Below are positions 9,969 to 50,872 of a DNA stretch of 64,000 nucleotides, piece after piece. Each line of letters opens with the position of its first letter. Position 1 is the stretch's first letter. The stretch covers positions 166 to 64,165 of the forward strand of contig SKVW01000014.1 in the NCBI GenBank assembly GCA_007129255.1, read 5' to 3'. Made by a program: the position numbers and the translations under genes. Under the pieces are notes generated by a model. It did not search any database and had not been told where the DNA came from. It worked only from the letters and a program-made list of their open reading frames with translations. The stretch is from Bacteroidales bacterium. GTDB taxonomy: Bacteria; Bacteroidota; Bacteroidia; Bacteroidales; UBA7960.

Positions 9969-11321
9969 ATGGTTAAACTAAGATTCAGATATGATAATTT
10001 GAAGGCGTTTATTGAAAAGGATCAGATCCGCTTATTTGATGCTGAATTTTCATTGCATCACAAAAACCTATACAGCGGAAAAGGTAAGGGCAGTGAATTT
10101 ACAGGATGGGTGGACTTGCCTTCCAAAACAAGCAATGACCTGTTAAGCCGTATTGAGCAGGATGCACTTAAGATTGCAAAACAGTCAGAAGTATTGGTGG
10201 TAACCGGTATAGGCGGTTCCTATCTGGGGGCCAGGGCTGTTATTGAAGCGTTGTCCAACCCTTTGGACGGGCTGATGGAGAGAACCGGTAAAAAATCGCC
10301 CCTGGTTTTGTATGCCGGCCACCATATGGATGAGGATTACCAGTTTCACCTGATGGATTTGCTGGATCAAAAGGATTATTCCGTAATTGTGATTTCAAAA
10401 TCCGGAACTACAACCGAACCCGCCATTGCTTTTCGCCTGCTCAAAAGCCACCTGGAAAACAAATACGGGAAAGAGGAAGCTGCCGCAAGGGTTTATGCCA
10501 TCACCGATGCTTCCAAAGGGGCACTGAAAAAACTCGCGGATGAAAAAAAATACGCGACTTATGTTATTCCCGATGATGTGGGTGGGCGCTATTCGGTGCT
10601 TACCCCGGTGGGGCTGCTTCCCATTGCTGCCGCAGGATTCAGCATCCATAAGTTGATCGGAGGAGCAAAGAATATGGAAAAATTCCTGAAAGAAAATTCC
10701 GGACTTTCCGATAATCCTGCCGGGCTCTATGCGGTACTTCGCAATGTGCTTTACCAGAAAGGGAAAACCATTGAGATCCTGGCCGGGTATAAACCTTCCC
10801 TGCATTATTTCATTGAATGGTGGAAACAGCTATATGGCGAGAGTGAAGGCAAAGAAGAAAAAGGTATCTTCCCTGCAGGGGCAGGGTTTACCACCGACCT
10901 GCACTCCCTGGGCCAATACATACAGGACGGGCTCAGGAATCTGTTTGAAACGGTGATCAATGTTGAGACCCCGCAGAATGAAGTACAGGTGCCCAATGAC
11001 CCGGATGACCTTGATGGGTTGAACTACCTTGAGGGAAAAAGGATCAGTTATGTTAATGCAATGGCCTCCAAAGCCACCATGCTGGCCCACGTGGATGGGG
11101 GAGTGCCCAATATGGAAATAGTTCTTCCAGAAATCACAGAAGAGACCCTTGGTGAAATGATCTATTTCTTTGAAATGGGCTGTGCCCTCAGCGGTTATAT
11201 ATTGGATGTAAACCCCTTTGACCAGCCGGGGGTGGAGGCTTATAAGAAAAACATGTTTGCCCTTTTGGAAAAACCGGGCTTTGAAGAAGACACCCAGGCA
11301 ATAAAAAAACGGCTCCGGTAA
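9969..11321 (+). CDS. pgi: Glucose-6-phosphate isomerase
   Basis: 450 aa with the PGI signature DDVGGRYSVLTPVGLLP and the ~445-aa form common in Bacteroidota. Confidence 0.9.
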   Translation: MVKLRFRYDNLKAFIEKDQIRLFDAEFSLHHKNLYSGKGKGSEFTGWVDLPSKTSNDLLSRIEQDALKIAKQSEVLVVTGIGGSYLGARAVIEALSNPLDGLMERTGKKSPLVLYAGHHMDEDYQFHLMDLLDQKDYSVIVISKSGTTTEPAIAFRLLKSHLENKYGKEEAAARVYAITDASKGALKKLADEKKYATYVIPDDVGGRYSVLTPVGLLPIAAAGFSIHKLIGGAKNMEKFLKENSGLSDNPAGLYAVLRNVLYQKGKTIEILAGYKPSLHYFIEWWKQLYGESEGKEEKGIFPAGAGFTTDLHSLGQYIQDGLRNLFETVINVETPQNEVQVPNDPDDLDGLNYLEGKRISYVNAMASKATMLAHVDGGVPNMEIVLPEITEETLGEMIYFFEMGCALSGYILDVNPFDQPGVEAYKKNMFALLEKPGFEEDTQAIKKRLR

Positions 11322-11355
11322 GGGGCCGCTTTAAGGTATTTTTTTTAGAGTAGAA

Positions 11356-11802
11356 TTACCTTACCAGAACCATAGAGAATTCAATGGTAAAAGTAACTTC
11401 TTCTCCATCGTCACCTTCTTCGGTGTATTCTGCTTCACTATAACCTTCCAAACGATCCGGGCGTTTTTCCGTAAGTTGAAATACCATCGTTCCTTCAAAA
11501 GGATCGTCCTCTTCAGGTTCATCAAGTTTGATGGTGAGGTTATCCCCAATCAATGTCCACTCAAAAGCGTCCTCTTCTCCATCATCAAGCGTAGCGTAAC
11601 CCGTTCCATCCTCATTAAAGGTAATGGCTTCCAGCTCTTCATTGTCATCGGTCATAAACAACTCTCCGTCTATGTATAGATTTGTTACCATGCTTTGGAC
11701 ATCCCAGGTACCGACAATGGTAAAATCGTCATCGTCGTCACTGCAGGCGGAAAATAAAAATGCCAATGTGCCTAATAGCGCAATTAATTTTAAGTTTTTC
11801 AT
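11356..11802 (-). CDS. Acidic lipoprotein of unknown function
   Basis: MKNLKLIALLGTLAFLFSAC is a signal peptide with a lipobox Cys, followed by a D/E-rich start (SDDDDD). Confidence 0.6.
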   Translation of the reverse strand: MKNLKLIALLGTLAFLFSACSDDDDDFTIVGTWDVQSMVTNLYIDGELFMTDDNEELEAITFNEDGTGYATLDDGEEDAFEWTLIGDNLTIKLDEPEEDDPFEGTMVFQLTEKRPDRLEGYSEAEYTEEGDDGEEVTFTIEFSMVLVR

Positions 11803-11929
11803 AACACTGTTTTTTGTTTTTTAGTTGGTTAACATTAAACAAAGGTATGAATTTTTGGCTAAAATGCGAGGATGTGGGTTAAGAGTTGAAGCAAAACAAG
11901 ATATAATGAGGAGATGGTGTAAATTTTGG

Positions 11930-12508
11930 TTATCCGGAATTTTGCCGATAATAGCAATGCCGGCAAAGGGGTTCATAAGCATCGGTTTCGCCAAGTACCA
12001 CCAGTTTTTCATCCACGATGGTGCGATGAGAATACTGGGCCAGGCTGCCGCATCGCATACAAACGGCATGCACCTTGGTAATGTATTCTGCTGTGGCAAG
12101 CAAAGCAGGCATTGGGCCAAAAGGCTTTCCCTTAAAGTCCATATCCAGTCCGGCCACAATAACCCTGATCCCCGAGTTGGCCAGTTGGTTACAGACATTG
12201 GGCAGTTCCAGATCAAAAAACTGGGCTTCGTCAACGCCTACCACATCTACTTCATTGGCCATCAGCACAATATTGGATGAAGAGGGCACCGGGGTTGACA
12301 TGATCTCGTTGGCGTCGTGAGAAACCACCCTTTCTTCATCATACCGCACATCAATAGCCGGTTTAAAAATCTCCACTTTAAGCCCGGCAATGCGGGCGCG
12401 TTTTAACCTTCGGATCAACTCTTCCGTTTTGCCCGAAAACATGCTGCCACAGATCACCTCAATCCATCCGCGCCCCCCCGAGCGCTCCATGTCATTTTCA
12501 AGAAACAT
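11930..12508 (-). CDS. tdk: Thymidine kinase
   Basis: 192 aa with P-loop [17 protein letters not shown] and C-terminal zinc motifs CMRCG / CRHC. Confidence 0.9.
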
Positions 12509-12649
12509 GCAATGATTTTTTCTTTATTCTTTCTTACCTTTACACGAAATTTAACCGCCCTTCCGGCACAAAAATAATCAATAACTTTACACAATATTGA
12601 ACTGATTATAACCTTTGTTATTTTAATAACCCATTTGTGATTTTACCCT

Positions 12650-13675
12650 ATGAACCAACCTGAAGCAAAAGATAAAATTGTCAGTTTACTGGAAGAAATC
12701 GTTGAACGCGCACACTTTATCAATCAAAATCACCCCCAAAAAGATCTTTCGATGGATCTGGATACGGTAATGGAAGATCTGCGGTCGCTTTACCGGCAGT
12801 TTCAACTCCTGAAGAAAGAAAATGCGGAACAAAATCAGTTCATTGCTCCGGAGCAAAAGCCCGAAATTACGAAAGACAGCCCGGGCAGTCAGCAAACACC
12901 CGAAGTCAAAACAGAGGAGCCCCGAAAGCATCTTCCTTTCGTTTACGATGAAAGTGAACCCGAACCATCATCAGGTGGGGAAGTAAAGCAACCCGGGCAA
13001 ACAACAGAACAGCCACACACTTCACAGGAAACGGTGAGCGATAAGAAAGATCAACCTGTTGCTTCTCCCCAAACGCCTCAAGAAGAAAAACCGGCATCTC
13101 CGGATAAAAAAACTGGAGAAGAAGAAAAAGAAAAGGAAAAAACACCCGTCCCCGAAGAGCCAGGCGGAAAAGACATGCAGGAAAAACCATTAGAGCAGGA
13201 AGAACCGCAAAAGCCCAGCCTTCAGGAACAAGCCGGCCCTCAAAAACAAATGGAGGAAAAATCCGGTGATTCTTCTGCAGGCAATGGTTCAAAAGCGATC
13301 ATTGACCTTTTTTCAGATTCTCATTCCAATGCCATTGGTGATCAGTACCGTCAGGATGATAACTCCCTGCATCAGCGCATTTCCGGGAAGAAAGAGGACC
13401 AAAGCATTGGGACCCGAATGCAGCAAAAGGGAATCTCCAGCCTTAAGGAAGCCATTGGGGTGAATGACAAATTCCTGTTTATCAATGAGTTGTTCAACGG
13501 GAATATTCAGGCCTACAACGAAGCCATAACAAAACTCAATAACTCCGCCTCTTTGAATGATGCCTTTGAATACCTCAACAGGCTGAACCAGGAATTTGCA
13601 TGGGATGCCAGGCGCTCCGAACAAACCATAGAAAAACTGGCCGCTTTCGTTCAACGAAGGTATGCAGGCAACTAA
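12650..13675 (+). CDS. Hypothetical protein with a long E/P/Q/K-rich disordered centre and conserved-looking termini
   Basis: 341 aa. The central ~150 aa are low-complexity (PEQKPE..EEKEKEKTPVPEEPGG). The C-terminus reads DKFLFINELFNGNIQAYNEAITKLN. I recognise no family. Confidence 0.6.
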   Translation: MNQPEAKDKIVSLLEEIVERAHFINQNHPQKDLSMDLDTVMEDLRSLYRQFQLLKKENAEQNQFIAPEQKPEITKDSPGSQQTPEVKTEEPRKHLPFVYDESEPEPSSGGEVKQPGQTTEQPHTSQETVSDKKDQPVASPQTPQEEKPASPDKKTGEEEKEKEKTPVPEEPGGKDMQEKPLEQEEPQKPSLQEQAGPQKQMEEKSGDSSAGNGSKAIIDLFSDSHSNAIGDQYRQDDNSLHQRISGKKEDQSIGTRMQQKGISSLKEAIGVNDKFLFINELFNGNIQAYNEAITKLNNSASLNDAFEYLNRLNQEFAWDARRSEQTIEKLAAFVQRRYAGN

Positions 13676-41428: not shown

Positions 41429-41478
41429 GGGGTAATTTTTTACAAATATAGCATAAATGATGTGCCGGTCATACTAAA

Positions 41479-41539
41479 GAAAAACCGGCGGGAGCGCCGG
41501 TTTTTCCAGAAAAGACAGGTTGGGAACTTTTTTGTTCCC
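41479..41539 (-). terminator. Two tandem hairpins terminating the GT2 operon
   Basis: AACCGGCG (41483-41490) pairs with CGCCGGTT (41495-41502), flanked by A- and T-runs and so bidirectional in form. GGGAAC (41522-41527) pairs with GTTCCC (41534-41539). Both lie between the GT2 stop (41571) and the yicC start. Confidence 0.6.
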
Positions 41540-41570
41540 CCCAAGCAATAAGCAAGGGCAAGGCCCTTAC

Positions 41571-43028
41571 CTACTTTCTTATTATTTTTTTCTTTTTCCC
41601 TGATCGTTCTTCTTCACCAAAACCCTTTTTTTCCATTTGACCCCAGGTTTTTTCTCCAATAAAAAACTTAAAATTACCCCTTAAGTTAAAAAATAAAATA
41701 AATGGATGGTAAAAAATGGGTTCCAGCATGGAAGTAAACAGCATTTTACCGACTTCGCGCCTTTTGGTGTACCGGTGAAATGACAGTTCTTCAAAAAGGA
41801 TTGCCCAATAACTCAGGGAAACGGCAAACAGGTAAACTGTTGCCAGCAGCAGGAAGAAAAACGGCCAATTGGGAAAACCTAAAATGGCAATGATGATAAA
41901 ATACATGATACCGATAAACTCTATAATCGGTGCGAGCCATTCAAAGAAAAACCAGTAAGGATGACCCAGCACTCCGAGGCTTCCAAATTTTGGGTTGAAA
42001 AAGAGTTTGAAGTGGTGGAAGAGGCTTTCCATGGTGCCACGGGTCCAGCGGTCCCTTTGGCGCCCAAGTACCTTCAGGGTAGAAGGGACTTCTGTCCAGC
42101 AAAGGGGGTCAGGGATGTAAATAACGCGGTACTTTTCCTTTCTTTCAGCCATATAGCGCCTCATACGCACGATCAGCTCCATGTCTTCCCCAACCAGTTC
42201 CGGATTGTATCCCCCGCATTTAATAACAATGTTTCGGTCAAACATTCCAAAGGCTCCGGAAATAAGCAACAAACCATTTAGCCTGCTCCAGGCCATTCGT
42301 CCCATTAAAAAGGCCCTGGTATATTCCAGTACCTGGATTTTGGGCAAAAACCTGCGGGGAAGCTTAACTTCTGTGATGCGTCCCTCTTTTATTTTACAGG
42401 AATTGGCAACGCGGATAACCCCGCCTGAAGCAATGATCCTTTTGCCGGTCTCTTCCAGGAAAGGTTTGGCCATGATCAGCAGGGCATCTTCTTCCAGGAT
42501 GCAGTCAACATCAATGGCCGAGAAAAAATCTTTTTCGGAAATGCTGATCCCGGCGTTCAGGGCGTCGGCTTTTCCGCCGTTTTCTTTGTCTATGACCGTG
42601 AGCTTCGAAAACGCTTTGTTACGCGACTTGTAAACCCCTTTTATGGGCTTGGTCGGTATTTTTTCCTCATACAGAATATCTACCATTTCCAGATCATAGG
42701 CTTCTATGATCCTTTCCATTGTGTCATCGGTGCTTCCGTCGTTAACAATGATCACCTCAAAATCGTTATAGTGCAGTGACAGCAGGCTACGGATATTGTC
42801 CACAATGCTTTTGCCTTCGTTATAGGCCGGTGCAATAATGGAAATAGAGGGAGCAAGGGGCGAAGAAAGCAGCATGCGATAATCTACAAAGCTGTTCTTC
42901 CTCATATACCTCAGCATCCCCATTCCGGAAAAAAAGGCCAGGCAGGCATAGGAGCCAAAAATGAAAATGGTGATAACTATGATCCCATTTTCTATGATGT
43001 ATTGCAGGGCTTTGAAAAAATCAATCAT
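41571..43028 (-). CDS. Processive family-2 glycosyltransferase (PgaC/IcaA/BcsA-like polysaccharide synthase)
   Basis: 485 aa with an N-terminal TM. Catalytic motifs are APAYNEG, VNDGSTDDT, GGKADALNAG, AIDVDC, GEDMEL and QRDRWTRG (QxxRW), followed by several C-terminal TM segments. Confidence 0.85.
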   Translation of the reverse strand: MIDFFKALQYIIENGIIVITIFIFGSYACLAFFSGMGMLRYMRKNSFVDYRMLLSSPLAPSISIIAPAYNEGKSIVDNIRSLLSLHYNDFEVIIVNDGSTDDTMERIIEAYDLEMVDILYEEKIPTKPIKGVYKSRNKAFSKLTVIDKENGGKADALNAGISISEKDFFSAIDVDCILEEDALLIMAKPFLEETGKRIIASGGVIRVANSCKIKEGRITEVKLPRRFLPKIQVLEYTRAFLMGRMAWSRLNGLLLISGAFGMFDRNIVIKCGGYNPELVGEDMELIVRMRRYMAERKEKYRVIYIPDPLCWTEVPSTLKVLGRQRDRWTRGTMESLFHHFKLFFNPKFGSLGVLGHPYWFFFEWLAPIIEFIGIMYFIIIAILGFPNWPFFFLLLATVYLFAVSLSYWAILFEELSFHRYTKRREVGKMLFTSMLEPIFYHPFILFFNLRGNFKFFIGEKTWGQMEKKGFGEEERSGKKKKIIRK

Positions 43029-44503
43029 TACTCCTCTTCATTTTGTTTAACATTTTCAATAATCTTTCGCAATTCGGGATCTGCTTTGCGGTATATTTTT
43101 TCAAGGGCTTCTTTTCCTTTTTCCCCGGTGCTTACCATGATTTTGGCTGCTATTAGCAGGATACTGAAAACGGTTTCATGCAGCATTATTTCTTCCAGGA
43201 AGTCTAATTCTTTGTGGGTGGCCAAAGGATAAAATGCCTCCAGTGCAGCCTTGCGGTTTTTTTCCATCATCAATACCAGCAATTCATCTTGTTGGTGGTC
43301 TTTGTCTGGAATTTCATTTTGAAACGCCTTTTTCAAATCGTCAATATTTTCAGGTATTTCCAGTTGTCCCAGGGCTTTAATGGCATGGTGCCGGACTTTG
43401 GGGTTGTGATGGGTCAGGAGGGTTGCCAGTTTGGGTGCTTCCTGAGTATGCTTATAATAGCCGGTCATTTTGGCGGCAAAAATAACTACCGAATCATTGG
43501 AGCTATCCAGCCATCTTTCGAATGAGTCGATAAAGATATGATGATAATTCAGGGTATTCAGGATGTTTACCTGTTCCCACTCAGAAAGCTCATAGTTTAA
43601 ATCATCCAGGAAAAACAGCGGGTCATCCTCACTGATTTTCACCAGGGCCACATGGGCTTCCATGCGAAGCACTTTGTTTTTGGAATTTGCGTATTTGGCT
43701 ATTTGCTGGTTGGCATCTTTTACATCCATCTGCGACAGTTCCTTGAACCCTTTGGCTTTGAGATCCCACCGCCTTGCCTGTACTTTGGCCAGTGAAGTTT
43801 TGTAAAGGCCCAGATTAAAATAAAAATCGCGCAAGCGATTGGCCGCTTCTCCGTATAGGTTGTTATGAAGGGAAAGTAACTCATTAAGGAATATTTCCCG
43901 GTTGGCATTGAATTTAATCCCTGTAAACTCATAAGGGTGCCCTTCCTCCCCAAAAAGAAAATTGGTTAGCTCTTCCTGGTAAATTTCCTTCATTTTTTTT
44001 GCCTGCCTTCTTTTTCGGGTTTTCAGGGTGCGATTGACAATAATAATGGTGAACAGGGAAAGCAGGCTAAAAATGAGGTAAATAAGAATAACCAAAAGGA
44101 TTTTGACTTTAAGTCCGGAAGTTCGGTAGGTTTCAATGAATCTTGACCAAAGACCGGAAGGGTTTTGGGAGTTGCCCGGGGATTCCTCGCCTATACTTTC
44201 TATATAAACTTCCAAAAATGACAGATTTTTTCCCGGAACTTCCAGGGCTGCTGCGGGTGCAAGGTTTATCTCCTGAAAAGAATAAGCCAAAGTCCGCAAA
44301 AAACAAATACTGTTTGATGAATACAGGTTTTGAGAGAATTCAGCCTTAACAAACTCCTGAAAGAATGCTCTATCCTGTTTGGGTCCTGATGCCAGGGTAA
44401 CCTGGCTAAAAGCCAAACCACTTACCAGGAAAAAAAGAAGAAATTTTATGGTTTTATTCACCCTGATCATTTCTTTATATTGTTTTGTTTTCTTCGTTTT
44501 CAT
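43028..44503 (-). CDS. Bitopic membrane protein with a cytoplasmic HEAT/ARM-like repeat domain
   Basis: 491 aa: signal-like N-terminus, a ~110-aa extracytoplasmic segment, one TM (KILLVILIYLIFSLLSLFTIIIV), then helical repeats (NPKVRHHAIKALGQL). Its stop overlaps the GT2 ATG by 1 nt (TAATG). Confidence 0.55.
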   Translation of the reverse strand: MKTKKTKQYKEMIRVNKTIKFLLFFLVSGLAFSQVTLASGPKQDRAFFQEFVKAEFSQNLYSSNSICFLRTLAYSFQEINLAPAAALEVPGKNLSFLEVYIESIGEESPGNSQNPSGLWSRFIETYRTSGLKVKILLVILIYLIFSLLSLFTIIIVNRTLKTRKRRQAKKMKEIYQEELTNFLFGEEGHPYEFTGIKFNANREIFLNELLSLHNNLYGEAANRLRDFYFNLGLYKTSLAKVQARRWDLKAKGFKELSQMDVKDANQQIAKYANSKNKVLRMEAHVALVKISEDDPLFFLDDLNYELSEWEQVNILNTLNYHHIFIDSFERWLDSSNDSVVIFAAKMTGYYKHTQEAPKLATLLTHHNPKVRHHAIKALGQLEIPENIDDLKKAFQNEIPDKDHQQDELLVLMMEKNRKAALEAFYPLATHKELDFLEEIMLHETVFSILLIAAKIMVSTGEKGKEALEKIYRKADPELRKIIENVKQNEEE

Positions 44504-44509
44504 TAACTT

Positions 44510-45799
44510 TTAAAAAAGGTATGCCACACCAGCTTCCAGGGTATATTGATTGCCCCATATTTCGTCCTGGTAATGGCTGTAACCTGCTCCCGCCTTTACC
44601 AGGAAGTTGCCTGAAACGATCTGCTGATACATGAGCATGATCCGGTTGCTCTCGATGTCATAAATCTGTCCTCCAACCAGGGCATCCTCATCCGCAGAAA
44701 ACCCGGTTCCCAGTATCAGTGACAAGTGATGATCCGGAGAGGTAAAATACCTTCGGAGGGTTAAAAAGTATGATTGGGCCCCTGGCATATCGGAGGCAAG
44801 GGTAAAATAAGGACGGAAGCTGAAATAATACTTTCCGTAATATTTGCTGATTGAGCCGGTAAGGATCAACAGGTCGGTTTCCGCAAACCTGAGCATTCGC
44901 AAACCAGCCGATATTTCCCAATCGGCCGGCAATCGTTGAAAAAGCTCAAGGCCTGCCCTGTACTTAGGGAAAATATGGTCGTCGGGAGAGTATCCTGCAT
45001 TAAGATAAAGGTATCTGCCGGGGCCTAAGGGGGGATAGGCATCGGCCTCCACCTGAAATCCGTCCTGCCCGAAACGTCTTCCGTAATTTACCCTTCCGAT
45101 AACCTTTCCAAAGGTATTGGTGCGCTGGCCATATTCTGCATAAAAAAGATGCCAGGGGTTGGCATCGTCAAATAAATCAACTCTGTAACCCACGCCCACA
45201 TGGTTTTTCATTGTTTTCCTGGCAACCTGGTCAAGCAGGTTATCAGCTTCTTCCAGGGTGGGATCTGTTTCCAGGACTTTGTTGAGCACTTCTGCGGCCT
45301 CTTCATATTCTTCCAGGGCTATGAGCGCTTTGGCCTTTCTCATCAGGAGGTTCGTGTTTTCCGGCTCCAATTCCAGGGCCAGATTTGCATAATGTAATGA
45401 TTCCTGGTAGTTTCCTGCCCATCTTTGAAGGTCCGACATGGCAAGTAAAGCTTCAATATGTCGGGGTTCCTGTGCAAGCAAATCAGTCAGCAGTTCTAGC
45501 CCTTCCTCATATTCCTCGTCCCACCCGTAGGTTCGGGCCATCAGCACGGTTGCATCGTGATATGCGGAATTGATTTCCAGAATTTCACGGCACAGCTGCC
45601 TGGCTTGCTGGGTTTCACCCTCAAAGGCAAGTTCCCTGGCCTGGAAAAACATTTGGTCGGTATTGTGCGGGTTATTGCCGTGATCCTGGGCAGGAAGGGT
45701 ATTTGAGAACAGGACGGCAGCAAGAAAAAGCAGGGCAGAGATGGTCAGGGGCTTTCTCCGTATACTGTTAAACAGAAAAAGAAGTTGCTCTGTTTTCAT
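44510..45799 (-). CDS. TPR-repeat + YaiO-family outer-membrane beta-barrel protein
   Basis: The track start 45862 is GTG; ATG 45799 gives MKTEQLLFLF..ISALLFLAAVLFSNTLPAQD (signal peptide). TPRs follow (ARQLCREILEINSAYHDA, ALLAMSDLQRWAGNYQESL, ALELEPEN). The ~240-aa C-terminus has alternating strands ending GVAYLF, matching my memory of the YaiO family. Confidence 0.6.
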   Translation of the reverse strand: MKTEQLLFLFNSIRRKPLTISALLFLAAVLFSNTLPAQDHGNNPHNTDQMFFQARELAFEGETQQARQLCREILEINSAYHDATVLMARTYGWDEEYEEGLELLTDLLAQEPRHIEALLAMSDLQRWAGNYQESLHYANLALELEPENTNLLMRKAKALIALEEYEEAAEVLNKVLETDPTLEEADNLLDQVARKTMKNHVGVGYRVDLFDDANPWHLFYAEYGQRTNTFGKVIGRVNYGRRFGQDGFQVEADAYPPLGPGRYLYLNAGYSPDDHIFPKYRAGLELFQRLPADWEISAGLRMLRFAETDLLILTGSISKYYGKYYFSFRPYFTLASDMPGAQSYFLTLRRYFTSPDHHLSLILGTGFSADEDALVGGQIYDIESNRIMLMYQQIVSGNFLVKAGAGYSHYQDEIWGNQYTLEAGVAYLF

Positions 45800-45870
45800 T
45801 AGCAGGCTGGTTATTGAATTTTTTCCTGAAAAATCAACTGATAGCCAACAGTTAATTTGCACAAGGAGTT

Positions 45871-46233
45871 TTACCTTTTAATTATCAATCTTTTAACCCG
45901 TATAGACAGTTCGTTGGGGCTGAAGGGCTTGGTAAGGTAATCATCGGCACCTAATTTAAAAGCTTCGATGATGGTTTCTTCATTTCCAACCTTTGAAAGC
46001 ACAATGACCGGGGTTTCTTTTTTAAGCTCATTGCGAATCAGGTTTATGATTTCCAGACCACCAGTAAAAGGCATTAAAAGATCGGTAATGACCAGATCAT
46101 ATTCCTGCTCTTTTAACTTGTCGGAGGCTACTTTTCCGTCATTGGCATTGTCAACCTCGTAGCCCTCGCGTGTGAGTTTGTGCTCAATGGCCTTGATTAC
46201 CATATAGTCGTCTTCACAAACTAATATCTTCAT
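45871..46233 (-). CDS. Stand-alone response-regulator receiver (CheY-like)
   Basis: 120 aa. MKILVCEDD..DLVITDLLMP..VLSK..GADDYLTKPF. There is no output domain. Confidence 0.85.
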   Translation of the reverse strand: MKILVCEDDYMVIKAIEHKLTREGYEVDNANDGKVASDKLKEQEYDLVITDLLMPFTGGLEIINLIRNELKKETPVIVLSKVGNEETIIEAFKLGADDYLTKPFSPNELSIRVKRLIIKR

Positions 46234-46327
46234 TGTTTTCTTATATTAAAAATGGGAAAAAAGAATATTGATAGCTAATTGATTTTCAAACCCGGATTTT
46301 TTTGCTTAACGAATTAAATTTATCGCT

Positions 46328-46335
46328 CAAAGGTA
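46328..46335 (-). promoter_or_regulatory. -7 box TACCTTTG upstream of the receiver-led operon
   Basis: The minus strand reads TTTATTTACCTTTGAGCG, an exact TAnnTTTG match about 95 nt upstream of ATG 46233. Confidence 0.45.
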
Positions 46336-46606
46336 AATAAAAATACGTTTAACAGCAGTTTTTTCTCAATAAATCAGAACAAGAATCAGTTAATCCGGTT
46401 AATACTGTTATTCTGCTTGTACGTAAAAATGAATAAAAAGTTTAAAAAAGCAATAGACAAAAAAACAATGGCAGAGACAAATTACATTTTTTTTTCAGGG
46501 TTAGTCCAGGAAACCGTCATTTGGTTTATAATAATGAGGTTTTAGTTGAAAAAACACCTAACTTTATGATAAAAAATAAAAAAACCGATTGAAATTATTG
46601 GGTGTT

Positions 46607-48916
46607 ATGGAAAAAAATCGGGGAAAAGAATTTTCAGGAAAAACCGAAAAGGACATAAAGCGTGTAGAATCGGATCTTTCCACCCTGCTTCAGGCCGTGG
46701 AGCAAAGCACCAACTCCATAATCGTGACCGATCCACAAGGAAATATTGAATATGTAAACCGGAAATTTCTGGAAGTTACCGGGTATAAAAAAGACGAAGT
46801 CCTGGGTAAGCATACCCGCATGTTGAAATCAGGGCGGCAGTCGCCAACGTTTTACCGTGAACTTTGGGAAACCATTGCCTCGGGCAAAACCTGGAATGGA
46901 GAATTCAATAACCGGAAAAAAAACGGGGAATTTTACTGGGAGAAAGCCACCATCAGCCCTGTGCTTGATAAAGAAGGGAAAATAGTCCGCTTTTTAGGGA
47001 TGAAGGAAGACATCACTGCCCGTAAAAAGGCCGAAGAAGCGTTACTTTTGGAGAAAGATCAGCTCCGGCAGATCATCGACCTGGTGCCCCACATTATATA
47101 TGTGCGTAACAAAGAAAACCGCTATCTTTTGGCCAACAAAGCGCTATGCGAACTTTACGGAACAAAACGCCAGCAGCTTTTGGGCAAACCCGACCTGGAA
47201 CTTTGTCCGTCCAAAGAGGCGGCCAAAAAAAGCAAAGAAGATGATCTGAGGGTGATCCGCAAAGGACATACTGTTTTTGACAGGGAGTTTGTCATGAATA
47301 TTCCAGGGAAGGGTAAGAAGATATTTCAGCGGACCAAAGTTCCCTTCCGCATCAGTGGGTACGATGAAGACGTGGTTCTTGGGGTATTGATTGATATTAC
47401 CCGAACCAAAAATTATGAGGAAGAAATCATTAAATCCCGGGAGGAGGCCCTGAAAGCCTCCCGTGAAAAAGCAGCCTATTTGTCGGTAATCTCCCATGAG
47501 ATCAGGAGTCCGCTTAATGCCATTCTGGGTATTGCAGAGCTGCTGCCTGCCAAAGATCTTAACCCCGATCAGGCAGAAAACCTGGATATTCTTAAGTTTT
47601 CTGCCAAAAACCTGCTGGCATTGGTCAACGATATTCTTGACCACTCCAGGATGGAAGCTGGCAAACTGGAATTGGAACTGGTTCCCCTTGATTTAAAAAA
47701 ACTTTTGGAAAAGATCATAAAAAGTTGGGAGCCCCGGGCCAAAGAAAAAGAAATAGGGTTAAAGCTGGATGTTGATCCCGATATTCCCGGGCAAACTTTT
47801 GGAGACTCCCTGAGATTAAGCCAGATTTTTAACAACCTGGTTGGCAATGGCATCAAATTTACCGAGCGCGGATGGGTTAAGCTTTCCGCGAAATTAAAAG
47901 CAAAAGGAAAAGATCTTTGCCGCATAGCCTTTTTTGTGGAAGATACCGGCATAGGGATTGACCCCAAAAAAATAGACAGTCTTTTTGAACCCTTTATCCA
48001 GGCAGATAGTGAAATAGCCAGAAAATATGGGGGTACCGGTCTTGGCCTTACCATCATTAAAAACCTGGTGGAGCTGCATGGCGGTGAGGTAAAGGTAAAT
48101 AGCATGCCGGAGGAGGGCTCCGTTTTTTCTTTTGAGGTATCCTTCCGGTTTAAAAGTGACAGTGGCAGCGAAAAACCAAAAGATGTACCACAAGAAAAAA
48201 ATTTGGAAGGGATGATCGGGTTGCTTGTGGAAGATGATGTGATGAGCATTATCCTGGCCAAAAAACTATTCGCCAGGTGGAAAGCCGATCTTTTGATTGC
48301 CGAAACCGGGAAAGAAGCCCTGGCTAAGACTAAGGAAATACCGTTTGACATAATATTGCTTGATTTGAATATGCCGGATAAAGACGGTTTTTATATTCTG
48401 CAACAGCTGAAGGCTACAGAAGGCCTTAACAGTAAAACTCCTGTGATAGCAGTGACCGGCCTCGATAAAGGGGAAATTAGAGATAAACTAAGGGATACTG
48501 GGGTTGCCGGCGTTCTTCAAAAACCATATGATGCTTCCGGGCTTTTTGAAAAAATCTCTGCACATACGGGAAAACCTCAGCAAGCAAAGGAAGTTTTAAA
48601 GGAGCGGGGATCCGGTGATACCTGCTTTGCCAGTGCTGCGAAAAAATCACCGGAAATTATACAAAGCCTGGGTGACCTGAAAAACATGCTGGAAGAAGAG
48701 GATTTAGATATATCGGATAAGGAAAAAGAAAAGATCACCAAAAAGGTGATCAGCAGGTTGGAAAAATGTGGTATGCTGTTGGAAGCCCAAAAACTGGGTG
48801 ATTTTTTAAGGCTAATGACCGGTTATAAAGGGCGCAACCGTCATTTTTTATTAAAGGTCATCAAAAAAGAAATGCTGACCATGAACGGGCACCTGATCCA
48901 TCTTGCAGAAAAATAA
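46607..48916 (+). CDS. Hybrid sensor histidine kinase/response regulator (2 PAS, HisKA, HATPase_c, REC, uncharacterised C-terminal helical tail)
   Basis: The track start 46589 is TTG; the ATG is at 46607. Elements seen: PAS (SIIVTDPQGNIEYVN..GEFYWEKATISPV), H-box SHEIRSPLNAILG, G-boxes (DTGIGI, GGTGLGL) and receiver (LLVEDD..ILLDLNMPDKDG..QKPY). I find no HPt motif in the last ~150 aa. Confidence 0.85.
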   Translation: MEKNRGKEFSGKTEKDIKRVESDLSTLLQAVEQSTNSIIVTDPQGNIEYVNRKFLEVTGYKKDEVLGKHTRMLKSGRQSPTFYRELWETIASGKTWNGEFNNRKKNGEFYWEKATISPVLDKEGKIVRFLGMKEDITARKKAEEALLLEKDQLRQIIDLVPHIIYVRNKENRYLLANKALCELYGTKRQQLLGKPDLELCPSKEAAKKSKEDDLRVIRKGHTVFDREFVMNIPGKGKKIFQRTKVPFRISGYDEDVVLGVLIDITRTKNYEEEIIKSREEALKASREKAAYLSVISHEIRSPLNAILGIAELLPAKDLNPDQAENLDILKFSAKNLLALVNDILDHSRMEAGKLELELVPLDLKKLLEKIIKSWEPRAKEKEIGLKLDVDPDIPGQTFGDSLRLSQIFNNLVGNGIKFTERGWVKLSAKLKAKGKDLCRIAFFVEDTGIGIDPKKIDSLFEPFIQADSEIARKYGGTGLGLTIIKNLVELHGGEVKVNSMPEEGSVFSFEVSFRFKSDSGSEKPKDVPQEKNLEGMIGLLVEDDVMSIILAKKLFARWKADLLIAETGKEALAKTKEIPFDIILLDLNMPDKDGFYILQQLKATEGLNSKTPVIAVTGLDKGEIRDKLRDTGVAGVLQKPYDASGLFEKISAHTGKPQQAKEVLKERGSGDTCFASAAKKSPEIIQSLGDLKNMLEEEDLDISDKEKEKITKKVISRLEKCGMLLEAQKLGDFLRLMTGYKGRNRHFLLKVIKKEMLTMNGHLIHLAEK

Positions 48917-48928
48917 ATCTTAAAGACT

Positions 48929-50872
48929 TTATGCTTGCTTGTTGAGCTTTTCCAGCTCTTCCCTGAGTTGCTCAATGGCCTTGAGGCAAATGGTCTTGGT
49001 TTTTTGGATAAGGTCGGGAACTTGATCCAGGTTTTCCTCTTTGTAGGCGCTTTGTTCAATTTTTTCCACATCTTCCAGGATGGAATGAATACCCATAAAG
49101 GTTAACTGGGGCTTGAACTTATGGGCTGCATTTCGCAGCGCTTTCCAGTCTTTTTTACTATAATACTCTTCCAGGCTTTCAAGGGTTTCCGGGGTGTTGT
49201 CAATAAAATAGGAAATCATGCTGGCGCTGAATTCGTGATCCCCTTCACTCAGTTGATTCAGATAATCCAGATTGATCAGCTTTTTCTGCCCATTTTCGGA
49301 TGAATTATTTTCAAAGTCTTTGTGCATGGGTTTATCAGGTTGCTTATTGTTTTTTGACGATACAAGGTTAAATATTTTTTCTTTAAGATCCTCAACATTA
49401 TAAGGTTTGGGAAGATAATCATCCGCTCCGGCCCCGAGGCATTTTTTCGGGGCATTTTCCGATATGCTGGCGGTAAAGGCAATGATGGGGATGTCGTGGT
49501 AGGCAGTGTGACGGTCTTTGCGTATCTCACGTATGGTATCCAGACCATCCATTATTGGCATTTGCATATCCATCAGGATCAGGTTGTAATTTTCGGTTTT
49601 TAGCTTTTCGATGGCGGAGTATCCGTTTTTGACAAAATCATAGGAAAGCCCGAGTTTTTCAAGATGTTTCCTGATCACAAACTGGTTAAGTTCCACATCC
49701 TCAGCCACCAGCACTTTTAGATTTTGCGGGAGATCCCGGTCTGTTTTCTTTTGTTCTGAGGGTTTTTCTTTTGGTTTGATAATATGCAAGGGTAAAGAGA
49801 ATTCATAAGTTAAACTTTCCCCGTCCCCATGATTTGCAATAACTTCCCCGTCAAGAGCTTTGATGATGGCATTTACCTTTTCCATGGCAATGGCGAAGGG
49901 TTTGGGGGTTAATCCCTCTTCGGTGATGGGGTCTTCACCTGCAGCCTTATTCAAAACGTCTTCTACCGAAAACAACACATGGCAATGATTTCCTGCAATG
50001 CGCTCAAGATTGGCAGAAATTTTAATGCAATCGGACTGGGTAAAAGAAAGAAAATACTCTGCCAGGGTTATCAGGATTTGGTTTACCCTGAATGCATCAC
50101 CCAGCAAAAGGCCGGGGATGTTGGGATCAATATGGGTCTGGGTGGCAATGTTCCTGGGTTTATTACGCGCTTCCAGAATTTGAAAAAGGTTATTCAGGTT
50201 TTCTTTTAAAGAGAATGCTTTAAGCTCAAGGGGCAAAGGTTGATCGGGCATCCGGCTTAGAAGCAGCAGGTCGTCAATCATTGCCGAAAGCAGGCGAACG
50301 GAATGGTCCATTTTTTCTAAATAGGTTCGCTGCTCTTCATTTATCCCCGATTCCTTTAGGATGCCTGTAAGCCCGGCAAGGCTGTTCAGGGGTGTGCGCA
50401 GTTCATGGCCTACCTGTGACAAGAAGCGGTCCTTAAAAAAGTCTTCTCCACTTGGGGTTTCAGAAGGGGCTGTTTCTTCCAGCGTTTTGGATAAAGCCAT
50501 AAAATGATAGGGTTTCCCTTTCTCTTTTACAAAAGGGTATATAGTAGTTTTTATCCTGAACAAGCTGCCATCCTTTTTCTTGTTAACAAGAGAGCCTTCC
50601 CAGACCTTACCCCGGGTAATGGATTCCCAAAGTTCCTGGAAAAAAGAGGCAGGATGCCTACCGCTGTTTATAAACCGGTGTGTTTTGCCTTTGAGTTCTT
50701 CAGCTGAGTACCCCGACAATTTGCAAAACCCCTTGTTGACAAAGGTTATTTTACCTTTTTCATCAGTAATAACCATTAATACAGATTCTTCAAGGGTCTG
50801 TTTGTAATAATCCAGGGCCTCATCCATCGTCATGGGGGAATCATTTCCGCTACTCGAATCACCGGATTGCAT
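48929..50872 (-). CDS. Hybrid sensor histidine kinase/response regulator with a C-terminal HPt domain
   Basis: 647 aa with PAS, H-box GHELRTPLNSLAG, a HATPase region, a receiver (VLVAEDVELN..LILMDMQMPIMDG..LPKPY) and HPt (AAHKFKPQLTFMG). Confidence 0.85.
   Translation of the reverse strand: MQSGDSSSGNDSPMTMDEALDYYKQTLEESVLMVITDEKGKITFVNKGFCKLSGYSAEELKGKTHRFINSGRHPASFFQELWESITRGKVWEGSLVNKKKDGSLFRIKTTIYPFVKEKGKPYHFMALSKTLEETAPSETPSGEDFFKDRFLSQVGHELRTPLNSLAGLTGILKESGINEEQRTYLEKMDHSVRLLSAMIDDLLLLSRMPDQPLPLELKAFSLKENLNNLFQILEARNKPRNIATQTHIDPNIPGLLLGDAFRVNQILITLAEYFLSFTQSDCIKISANLERIAGNHCHVLFSVEDVLNKAAGEDPITEEGLTPKPFAIAMEKVNAIIKALDGEVIANHGDGESLTYEFSLPLHIIKPKEKPSEQKKTDRDLPQNLKVLVAEDVELNQFVIRKHLEKLGLSYDFVKNGYSAIEKLKTENYNLILMDMQMPIMDGLDTIREIRKDRHTAYHDIPIIAFTASISENAPKKCLGAGADDYLPKPYNVEDLKEKIFNLVSSKNNKQPDKPMHKDFENNSSENGQKKLINLDYLNQLSEGDHEFSASMISYFIDNTPETLESLEEYYSKKDWKALRNAAHKFKPQLTFMGIHSILEDVEKIEQSAYKEENLDQVPDLIQKTKTICLKAIEQLREELEKLNKQA

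Follow-up and report, generated by a model that had tools for sequence, protein, structure and literature searches.

The described systems closest to this locus export a polysaccharide made by a synthase of the inner membrane. In the Pga system, a processive family-2 glycosyltransferase (GT2), PgaC, is accompanied by the two-TM partner PgaD and by PgaA, an outer-membrane exporter formed by TPRs and a beta-barrel; c-di-GMP binding to PgaCD is the activator, and in E. coli the PgaB deacetylase is needed for export of the product, poly-beta-1,6-GlcNAc (PNAG). The Bcs system combines a processive GT2 (BcsA), a PilZ domain, the periplasm-reaching partner BcsB and the TPR/barrel exporter BcsC, and the Nfr system of E. 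coli contains NfrB, NfrA and YbcH. A different switch was described in Myxococcus xanthus, where the single-domain protein EpsW, when phosphorylated, is a post-translational activator of the glycosyl-phosphate transferase EpsZ (PMC12802240). For the operon analysed here, synthesis and export of a surface polysaccharide is the most likely function, with a phosphorylated receiver, in place of the usual c-di-GMP signal, as the apparent switch. No description or experimental study of any member was found in the searchable literature, and the system has apparently been unstudied so far.

The operon consists of four minus-strand genes in the order REC, TPR+YaiO, HEAT and GT2, all of them confirmed as open reading frames in the 64-kb window (the whole stretch of DNA analysed): REC at 45871-46233 (120 aa), TPR+YaiO at 44510-45862, HEAT at 43028-44503 (491 aa) and GT2 at 41571-43028 (485 aa). 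Genes called independently on identical contigs encode proteins of 120, 429, 480 and 485 aa, with YaiO starting at ATG 45799 and HEAT at ATG 44470; alternative starts are GTG 45862 and ATG 44503, respectively. With ATG 45799 the 71-nt gap between REC and YaiO given in an earlier note on this DNA is correct, and the 1-nt stop/start overlap between HEAT and GT2 (TAATG at 43028) was confirmed. The 6-nt gap between YaiO and HEAT stands for ATG 44503, but becomes 39 nt for ATG 44470, the start chosen by the gene callers and the closest homologue.

Downstream of the GT2 stop codon, where two hairpins had been reported (41483-41539), the structures are real and comprise three tandem stem-loops on the minus strand (41478-41575; MFE -50.2 kcal/mol, z = -5.23, 0 of 200 shuffles folding equally well). 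The last one (41478-41507), with its 13-bp stem and the U-run behind it, resembles a strong intrinsic terminator. The transcription signals proposed upstream fared less well. A candidate Bacteroidota -7 promoter element, TACCTTTG, is present at 46328-46335 of the minus strand, about 95 nt upstream of the REC start, but this single site is weak evidence of a promoter because TAnnTTTG is found in the window at nearly chance frequency (63 observed, 59.5 expected). Within 200 nt upstream of REC the motif was identified in 28 of 69 homologous loci and in 30 of 137 coding controls, a modest enrichment. A palindrome of about 33 bp claimed at 46382-46414 was missed by an inverted-repeat search and is weak evidence too, since indels are needed to pair it by eye. 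A search of the operon leader for a riboswitch found none.

Profile searches bore out the domain identities read from the letters (Response_reg, YaiO with TPRs, HEAT_2 and GT2), as well as the absence of c-di-GMP receptors: no PilZ, MshEN or GGDEF domain was identified in the four proteins with Pfam and NCBIfam, and the operon contains no deacetylase, as claimed. The first gene encodes the orphan CheY-like receiver that had been proposed, a stand-alone Response_reg domain (100.8 bits) for which a Pfam search of the 120 residues found no output domain. Residues E7, D8, D51, S/T80, Y/F99 and K102 are kept in 74 of 74 members of its family, and judged by them the phospho-switch is intact.

The synthase is a PgaC-like processive GT2 that matches the Pfam GT2 families and, weakly, Chitin_synth_2. 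Its best NCBIfam model is PgaC_IcaA (143.5 bits, E 8.5e-42; cutoff 422.3), and in an alignment of 325 aa with E. coli PgaC it shows 26% identity, with a conserved insertion of about 30 residues relative to the latter. The full processive-synthase set noted before (DxD, GEDMEL, QRDRW) is present as NDGS-D97, D173xD175, G280-E-D282-MEL and Q324-R-x-R-W328, aligned with the PgaC motifs and unchanged across 16 homologues that are 60-85% identical. No PDB structure near enough for assigning the sugar was found; a GlcNAc-containing beta-glycan is the leading guess for the polymer, a weak lead with about even odds.

The outer-membrane protein (44510-45799, minus strand, 429 aa) comprises a signal peptide, about five TPRs and a YaiO-family barrel (PF19413, 193.6 bits; TIGR04390, 178 bits), so that the combination of N-terminal TPRs with a barrel holds both in the Pfam/NCBIfam matches and in the AlphaFold model. 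In this model (pLDDT 88) helices occupy residues 47-196 and 14 strands form a confident beta-barrel at 199-428. The best Foldseek matches of the whole protein in the PDB were BcsC (E 3e-11), PelBC, PgaA and OmpG. The barrels of PgaA, BcsC and AlgE have 16-18 strands, a difference that counts against export.

The HEAT protein (43028-44470, minus strand, 480 aa; HEAT_2, 55.7 bits) is predicted to be bitopic in the inner membrane, with an N-terminal signal or anchor, a disordered periplasmic segment, one TM helix (inside residues 120-173 of the model) and a cytoplasmic alpha-solenoid (188-479, pLDDT >90). A periplasmic N-terminus is indicated by the SPOR (15 of 44) and LysM (5 of 44) modules that precede the TM helix in long family members. 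The fold is uninformative on function because Foldseek returned generic HEAT/ARM solenoids only. The family is large, with 806 representatives (clusters at 50% identity) at E <= 1e-30, and no REC-HEAT, REC-GT2 or HEAT-GT2 gene fusion was found among the 44 long members.

Very strong conservation of the four genes as a neighbourhood was confirmed with 82 loci, fetched to represent the best 80 of 199 matching GTDB species. The order REC, YaiO, HEAT, GT2 was found in 71 of them, including a clade with about 30% identity in HEAT and with unrelated flanks, and in nine or ten of the remaining 11 a contig end truncates the locus. Across the 71 loci, HEAT and GT2 meet with a median spacing of 2 nt. 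A minimal locus, with YaiO of 257 aa and HEAT of 360 aa, was identified in contigs of an Ignavibacteria-type cluster. A rearranged form (REC, HEAT, GT2, a sulfatase-like enzyme and TPR/YaiO) is present in the cultured Robiginitalea aestuariiviva and in two metagenome contigs; across its full length the GT2 of this form shows 51% identity, the extra enzyme belongs to the sulfatase/phosphotransferase superfamily and the REC gene abuts the HEAT gene with a spacing of -4 to +6 nt. Practically all complete loci keep REC within the operon, in three architectures and at least two phyla, and the TPR+barrel gene stays with the synthase in all architectures. By gene order the operon is real and conserved across Bacteroidota and relatives.

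As judged from these sequences, the operon would encode, with a probability of about 0.6, machinery of an undescribed type for the synthase-dependent production and export of a polysaccharide, with the receiver as post-translational switch. The GT2 would polymerise a nucleotide sugar and thread the chain through the inner membrane, like PgaC and BcsA, and the TPRs and 14-strand barrel would take it in the periplasm and then across the outer membrane. The HEAT protein, variable in its periplasmic N-terminus, would be an obligate partner of the synthase. The receiver would act as on/off switch: after an Hpt-bearing phosphorelay protein has phosphorylated its D51, it would bind the HEAT-GT2 complex from the cytoplasmic side, most likely at the HEAT solenoid, and activate synthesis, the role taken by c-di-GMP receptors in Bcs, Pga, Pel, Alg and Nfr. 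We infer this phospho-gating of the synthase via the HEAT protein, and with it the formation of the complex, the direction of regulation, the docking on HEAT and the identity of the polymer.

Two hybrid kinases had been noted beside the operon, and one of them is complete. The divergent gene at 46589-48916 (plus strand) encodes a PAS-PAS-HisKA-HATPase-REC protein in Pfam, lacking Hpt; it is a possible phosphodonor and a lineage-specific insertion, a clear orthologue at the same position being identified only in locus L030. The co-directional gene at 48929-50872 (minus strand) encodes a PAS-HisKA-(degenerate ATPase)-REC-Hpt protein where Pfam identified HisKA, REC and Hpt and no HATPase_c. Compared with the kinase next to it, this pseudokinase has lost the N, G1 and G2 ATP-binding boxes, and HATPase_c is also missing from its orthologue in L001. 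This protein is a candidate phosphotransfer partner of REC. In 17 of 29 near-clade loci the gene directly upstream of the quartet encodes an Hpt-bearing protein, as it does in L091 (HisKA-HATPase-REC-Hpt) and L090 (REC-Hpt). The phosphodonor is not consistently linked to the quartet, since no kinase was found within 6-8 kb in the distant clade.

Single-domain receivers are often phosphate sinks or connectors, and REC could have such a role in a two-component pathway for transcription or another process, with no direct gating of a synthase and exporter as described. The HEAT protein would then be no signal relay but a structural or localisation subunit, such as a peptidoglycan tether, an anchoring role that fits the peptidoglycan-binding SPOR or LysM modules of its homologues. 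OmpR-type regulator/kinase pairs near many near-clade loci agree with this, and REC is tied to HEAT or GT2 by no fusion or contact evidence. However, a mere phosphate sink would unusually be retained inside the operon in all three architectures and abut HEAT in the rearranged one, and the distant clade keeps REC with no adjacent transcription factor or kinase, making this explanation rather unlikely.

The two other alternatives concern the product. A divergent Pga/Ica-type system making PNAG, with lineage-specific replacements of PgaD and PgaA and incidental regulation, is improbable: although PgaC_IcaA is the best curated family, the JGI name of many homologues is poly-beta-1,6-N-acetyl-D-glucosamine synthase, E. 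coli PgaC aligns with all motifs and some HEAT homologues carry LysM, a GlcNAc-glycan binder, the score is far under the equivalog cutoff, PgaB-type deacetylase and PgaD are absent, the porin matches the PgaA model TIGR03939 only in the TPR region (38.7, cutoff 366.65) and the GT2 has its own insertion. At such distance sugar and linkage are unreadable from sequence. Very improbable is a periplasmic or membrane-bound glycan (an osmoregulated glucan or glycolipid) with a separate outer-membrane role for YaiO, suggested by the 14-strand barrel, by E. coli YaiO having no known function and by the extra enzyme of the rearranged form, whose superfamily also decorates periplasmic glucans (OpgB). The exporter-like gene accompanies the synthase throughout, its whole fold best matches the exopolysaccharide exporters BcsC, PelB and PgaA, and barrels of OmpG size let oligosaccharides through.

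Compared with known systems, the receiver-switched machine proposed here shares with PgaABCD/IcaADBC a processive inner-membrane GT2, of which PgaC/IcaA is the nearest curated relative, and a small or bitopic membrane partner encoded beside it, and with Pga a TPR and beta-barrel exporter, the PgaA barrel (4y25) being among the fold matches. It differs in the distance and insertion of the GT2, in a partner of 480 aa with TM helix and HEAT solenoid instead of two-TM PgaD, in lacking PgaB/IcaB, in the 14-strand YaiO-family barrel and in having a receiver in the operon instead of c-di-GMP as activator. The Bcs system has a comparable set of synthase, periplasm-reaching partner and exporter, BcsC (9b8a, 9b8h) is the best structural match of the outer-membrane protein, and the sulfatase-superfamily periplasmic enzyme of the rearranged form occupies a position like that of the pEtN transferase BcsG. 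However, PilZ and BcsB are lacking here, the CelA score is 24 bits (cutoff 699), the TPR region is much shorter, the barrel is smaller and a receiver stands in place of c-di-GMP regulation.

The earlier note stated correctly that E. coli yaiO neighbours the GT2 gene yaiP. The uncharacterised yaiO-yaiX-yaiP-yaiS cluster also places a YaiO-family barrel beside a membrane GT2, and both YaiO proteins match the same family models. However, YaiP is 26% identical in the GT-A core only, E. coli YaiO lacks TPRs and is undetectable in pairwise comparison, and the E. coli genes include those for an acyltransferase and a deacetylase, with neither HEAT protein nor receiver; by sequence it is a distant analogue only. 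NfrB-NfrA-YbcH likewise comprises a GT2, a TPR/barrel protein and a single accessory protein, and a signal activates it post-translationally, as annotated there and proposed here, whereas NfrB has no significant similarity to the GT2 (E 0.018) and carries a C-terminal MshEN c-di-GMP domain, absent here. Finally, EpsZ is a phosphoglycosyl transferase that works in a Wzx/Wzy pathway rather than as a processive synthase, the switch there involves no HEAT adaptor and the phosphodonor of EpsW is a chemosensory kinase. Even so, EpsW is a phosphorylated single-domain regulator that directly binds and activates a polysaccharide enzyme (PMC12802240), and by analogy EpsW-EpsZ is the best functional precedent of the switch proposed here.

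The quartet is formed by four minus-strand open reading frames that an ORF search of the window placed at 41571-46233. These are a stand-alone receiver of 120 aa (REC, 45871-46233), a TPR and YaiO protein of 429 aa (44510-45799, with an alternative GTG start at 45862), a HEAT-repeat membrane protein of 480 aa (43028-44470, in an ORF that reaches an ATG at 44503) and a family-2 glycosyltransferase of 485 aa (GT2, 41571-43028). Gene calls made independently on identical public contigs, NCBI GCA_003566495.1 among them, gave the same lengths for all four proteins, and the public annotation of the proteins is limited to 'PgaC', 'HEAT repeat protein' and 'YaiO family protein'. The gap between REC and the YaiO gene is 71 nt, as the earlier note had it, and the one-nucleotide overlap that it described between HEAT and GT2 is likewise present, the HEAT stop codon sharing one base with the start of GT2 (GAGGAGTAATG). 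The gap of 6 nt claimed between the YaiO and HEAT genes holds for the longer HEAT ORF, but becomes 39 nt with the ATG at 44470.

The hairpins claimed downstream of GT2 are three consecutive stable ones on the minus strand (41478-41575; MFE -50.2 kcal/mol, z = -5.2), lying beyond the GT2 stop but short of the yicC box, the last with a 13-bp stem and a U-run. Since they follow GT2 and a promoter-like TAnnTTTG box (41443-41450) stands ahead of the next gene, yicC, the transcription unit plausibly ends at about 41478. Weak, sub-threshold Rfam matches overlap the three hairpins. The Rfam scan of the operon and its leader identified no riboswitch and nothing near the gathering score. The TACCTTTG box proposed upstream of REC does exist, but the TAnnTTTG count in the window is that expected by chance (63 vs 59.5); upstream of REC in related loci the motif is modestly enriched (28/69 vs 30/137 controls). 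The operator palindrome proposed at 46382-46414 was not recovered by an inverted-repeat search.

A pattern scan plus tblastn, with one genome per GTDB species, identified a relative of the HEAT protein in 199 species, and the best 80 of these, all Bacteroidota MAGs and mostly Bacteroidales, provided 82 loci. REC, YaiO, HEAT and GT2 share the same order and strand in 71 of the 82, with 9-10 of the others cut by contig ends, so the neighbourhood suggested from the single sequence is indeed conserved in this set; the median HEAT-GT2 spacing is 2 nt. The near clade (29 loci) has the yicC flank in common. The far clade (51 loci) has only about 30% identity in HEAT and about 62% in GT2, presents other flanks and has no kinase near, which argues that the linkage of the four genes is not just inherited synteny. 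A single complete locus of the set (L034, 7182-10483) lacks the intervening YaiO gene, REC being followed directly by HEAT and GT2; its exporter may be encoded elsewhere or may have been lost. In the far-clade locus L038 a protein of about 915 aa with CarboxypepD_reg, FlgD_ig and Big_6 domains (10588-13332, minus strand) is encoded convergently to GT2, with equivalents in 35 of the 51 loci; it is followed by Omp85-family, PIG-L deacetylase-family and DUF6807 genes, an arrangement repeated on the P0039 contig.

An exhaustive profile search (E <= 1e-30) collected 806 representatives of the HEAT family, clustered at 50% identity, and sampling of these yielded a minimal architecture formed by REC, a YaiO protein of 257 aa with no TPR, a HEAT protein of 360 aa and GT2. 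The HEAT protein of the minimal quartet starts at the TM helix (locus L089, 198-3858), and the 90% cluster there includes a protein from an Ignavibacteria MAG, which carries the system beyond Bacteroidota. In a rearranged architecture the order is REC, HEAT, GT2, a sulfatase-family enzyme (about 800 aa, with TPRs) and TPR/YaiO; it was identified in the cultured Robiginitalea aestuariiviva and in two metagenome contigs (loci L090, 4416-13332; L091, 4798-14202; L092, 243-6896), and its GT2 is 51% identical to that of the window over the full length. The additional protein belongs to the sulfatase/alkaline-phosphatase superfamily (about 790-810 aa, TPRs at the C-terminus) and, by analogy with BcsG or OpgB, may be a periplasmic enzyme that decorates the polymer. 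The quartet order together with the minimal and rearranged architectures identifies REC, HEAT, GT2 and the YaiO barrel as the invariant set. The genomic case for this widespread system is strong.

The GT2 protein contains the processive motif set attributed to it (D, DxD, GED and QRxRW), invariant in 16 homologues and in register with E. coli PgaC (26% identity over 325 aa), and its hydrophobic segments at residues 2-40 and 353-450 flank the motif core. By these motifs and flanking TM segments it belongs with the inner-membrane processive GT2 enzymes of synthase-dependent exopolysaccharide systems. Its best curated family is PgaC/IcaA (TIGR03937, an equivalog), which it matches at 143.5 bits where the cutoff is 422.3; identification as the PNAG synthase was rejected on that score and on the 26% identity. 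Two regions distinguish the family from E. coli PgaC: a conserved insertion of about 30 residues in the GT-A domain (residues ~103-135), with Y133, S135 and N137 invariant, and a conserved C-terminal cytoplasmic WG...GF tail (462-470). Each is a candidate site where the HEAT protein or the receiver could dock. PDB searches with the single sequence and with a 16-sequence profile yielded nothing beyond matches to the N-terminal GT-A region and a weak match to BcsA (E 0.0024-0.0028 with the family profile, residues 257-388), so they offer no template for assigning the product. A beta-glycan that contains GlcNAc is weakly suggested as the product by three leads, namely the nearest curated families (PgaC/IcaA and NodC), a chitin-synthase match among the Pfam results and the LysM domains of some HEAT partners.

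The outer-membrane protein was modelled with a signal peptide, 10 TPR helices and 14 beta-strands (pLDDT 88), in agreement with the N-terminal TPRs and C-terminal barrel expected of it. In the PDB the whole model came closest to BcsC (E 3e-11), to the exporter PelBC and to the barrel of PgaA, and OmpG was the best match among barrels of the same size. The full YaiO barrel domain was identified above curated cutoffs (PF19413, 193.6 vs 23.9 over 1-173/173; TIGR04390, 178.3 vs 32 over 2-230/230). The protein is accordingly a member of the YaiO family and, as predicted from the model, a TPR and beta-barrel exporter of the kind found in synthase-dependent systems.

In its model the HEAT protein begins with a signal or anchor at the N-terminus; a periplasmic stretch predicted at low confidence leads to a single long TM helix, which is followed by a cytoplasmic solenoid predicted at high confidence. 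Among 44 long members of the family (P0291, P0292, P0306 and others), SPOR was identified in 15 and LysM in 5, N-terminal to the TM helix, which fixes an N-out/C-in topology and hints that the periplasmic end may bind peptidoglycan or a GlcNAc-glycan. The window protein has a low-confidence segment of about 80 residues where these homologues carry SPOR or LysM. Profile and Foldseek searches identified no functional analogue, the solenoid resembling generic HEAT/ARM proteins only (designed alphaRep and armadillo proteins, and importins). No fusions of HEAT to GT2 or to REC were identified among the 44 long members, where the two longest C-terminal extensions consist of more HEAT repeats.

The receiver belongs to PF00072 and, from its sequence, should be phosphorylatable: the residue set is complete (acidic pair, Asp, Thr/Ser, aromatic and Lys), and E7, D8, D51, S/T80, Y/F99 and K102 are kept in 74/74 operon-linked members of the family. 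The window receiver has no C-terminal extension. The two adjoining proteins described as hybrid kinases fit that description in part. The one at 46589-48916 (plus strand), divergent and situated between the other and REC, is a complete hybrid kinase, but without Hpt; the other, at 48929-50872 (minus strand), is a PAS-HisKA-REC-Hpt protein, upstream of REC and co-directional with it, whose degenerate ATPase lacks the N, G1 and G2 boxes, and the HATPase_c match is also absent from its orthologue in locus L001. They look like a split phosphorelay, one with a working ATPase and no Hpt, the other with Hpt and a degenerate ATPase. Their PAS domains are 36% identical, so the two may respond to one signal or form heterodimers. 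Of the 29 near-clade loci, 17 have a protein of the second type, with its Hpt, upstream of the quartet. In the rearranged form the gene directly upstream of REC encodes a HisKA-HATPase-REC-Hpt kinase in L091 and a REC-Hpt protein in L090. A His-Asp-His-Asp relay ending on a stand-alone receiver would look like this recurrent order of Hpt and then receiver.

The most economical mechanism would be one in which the phosphorylated receiver binds a cytoplasmic HEAT-GT2 assembly and turns polymerisation on. Phosphorylated EpsW, a single-domain regulator, was recently shown to activate the polysaccharide enzyme EpsZ by direct binding (PMC12802240). The most far-reaching reading, to which we give a probability of about 0.4, is that the quartet represents a new family of exopolysaccharide systems, widespread in Bacteroidota-Ignavibacteriota, where c-di-GMP control would be replaced by a His-Asp phosphorelay passing from Hpt to the receiver and, by docking on HEAT, to activation of a PgaC-like synthase; the periplasmic end of HEAT, with SPOR or LysM in many members, may provide a link to peptidoglycan or to a GlcNAc-type chain. 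With the receiver as sole dedicated regulator, two-component phosphotransfer would be able to gate a processive synthase directly, and the TM helix and HEAT solenoid would form a type of co-subunit not seen before. Relatives of HEAT occur in at least 199 GTDB species, and the system is present in Bacteroidota of sediments, digesters and the sea, where matrix polymers are important to aggregation and to the cycling of carbon. The cultured carrier R. aestuariiviva makes the system directly testable. The epsSMASH tool paper of 2025 draws on 28 known exopolysaccharide clusters, of which 14 are synthase-dependent. A description of a YaiO/GT2/HEAT/receiver system was found neither there nor elsewhere in the literature searched, which included PMC7112194, a systematic census of synthase-dependent biofilm-machinery operons.

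The operon has the logic of a synthase-dependent exopolysaccharide system, in that it combines a processive GT2 with a membrane partner and an exporter made of TPRs and a barrel. The Gram-negative machines of this kind that have been characterised (cellulose, PNAG, alginate, Pel and Nfr) are, so far as is known, activated by c-di-GMP. Bacteroidota may be poor in c-di-GMP signalling, a point for which no usable supporting passage was found and which is not used here as evidence. Pfam and NCBIfam searches (E <= 0.01) of the four proteins confirmed Response_reg, the TPRs with the YaiO barrel, HEAT_2 and the GT2 families and identified no PilZ, MshEN, GGDEF, deacetylase or other module, in line with what the earlier note had read from the sequence, and the domain search recognised no c-di-GMP receptor module (PilZ, MshEN, degenerate GGDEF I-site or PgaCD interface), a cryptic site being possible. 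The only hint of such a link was a GT2 homologue 82% identical to that of the window (P0088, 449 aa), whose C-terminus matches the final ~40 residues of GGDEF (27 bits); its contig of 2,060 nt is probably truncated or chimeric, and the link was rejected for that reason. The Pga system differs in its PgaB deacetylase, PgaD partner and PgaA porin, all absent from the operon, PgaA (TIGR03939) matching only the TPR region of the outer-membrane protein (38.7 vs 366.65). Cellulose synthase BcsA differs in score (TIGR03030; CelA, 24.1 vs 699 bits) and in its PilZ domain, absent here. NfrB gave a BLASTP E of 0.018 and was called unrelated, MshEN being absent from GT2. Finally, in the E. coli yaiOXPS cluster the similarity of YaiP to GT2 is confined to 250 aa of the GT-A domain, at 26% identity, and the neighbouring acyltransferase and deacetylase are absent from the operon. 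By its defining features, as read from sequence, the quartet is outside the Pga, Bcs, Nfr and E. coli Yai families, and its distinguishing features are a predicted co-subunit of TM helix and HEAT repeats and an operon-encoded, putatively phosphorylatable receiver instead of a recognisable c-di-GMP module.
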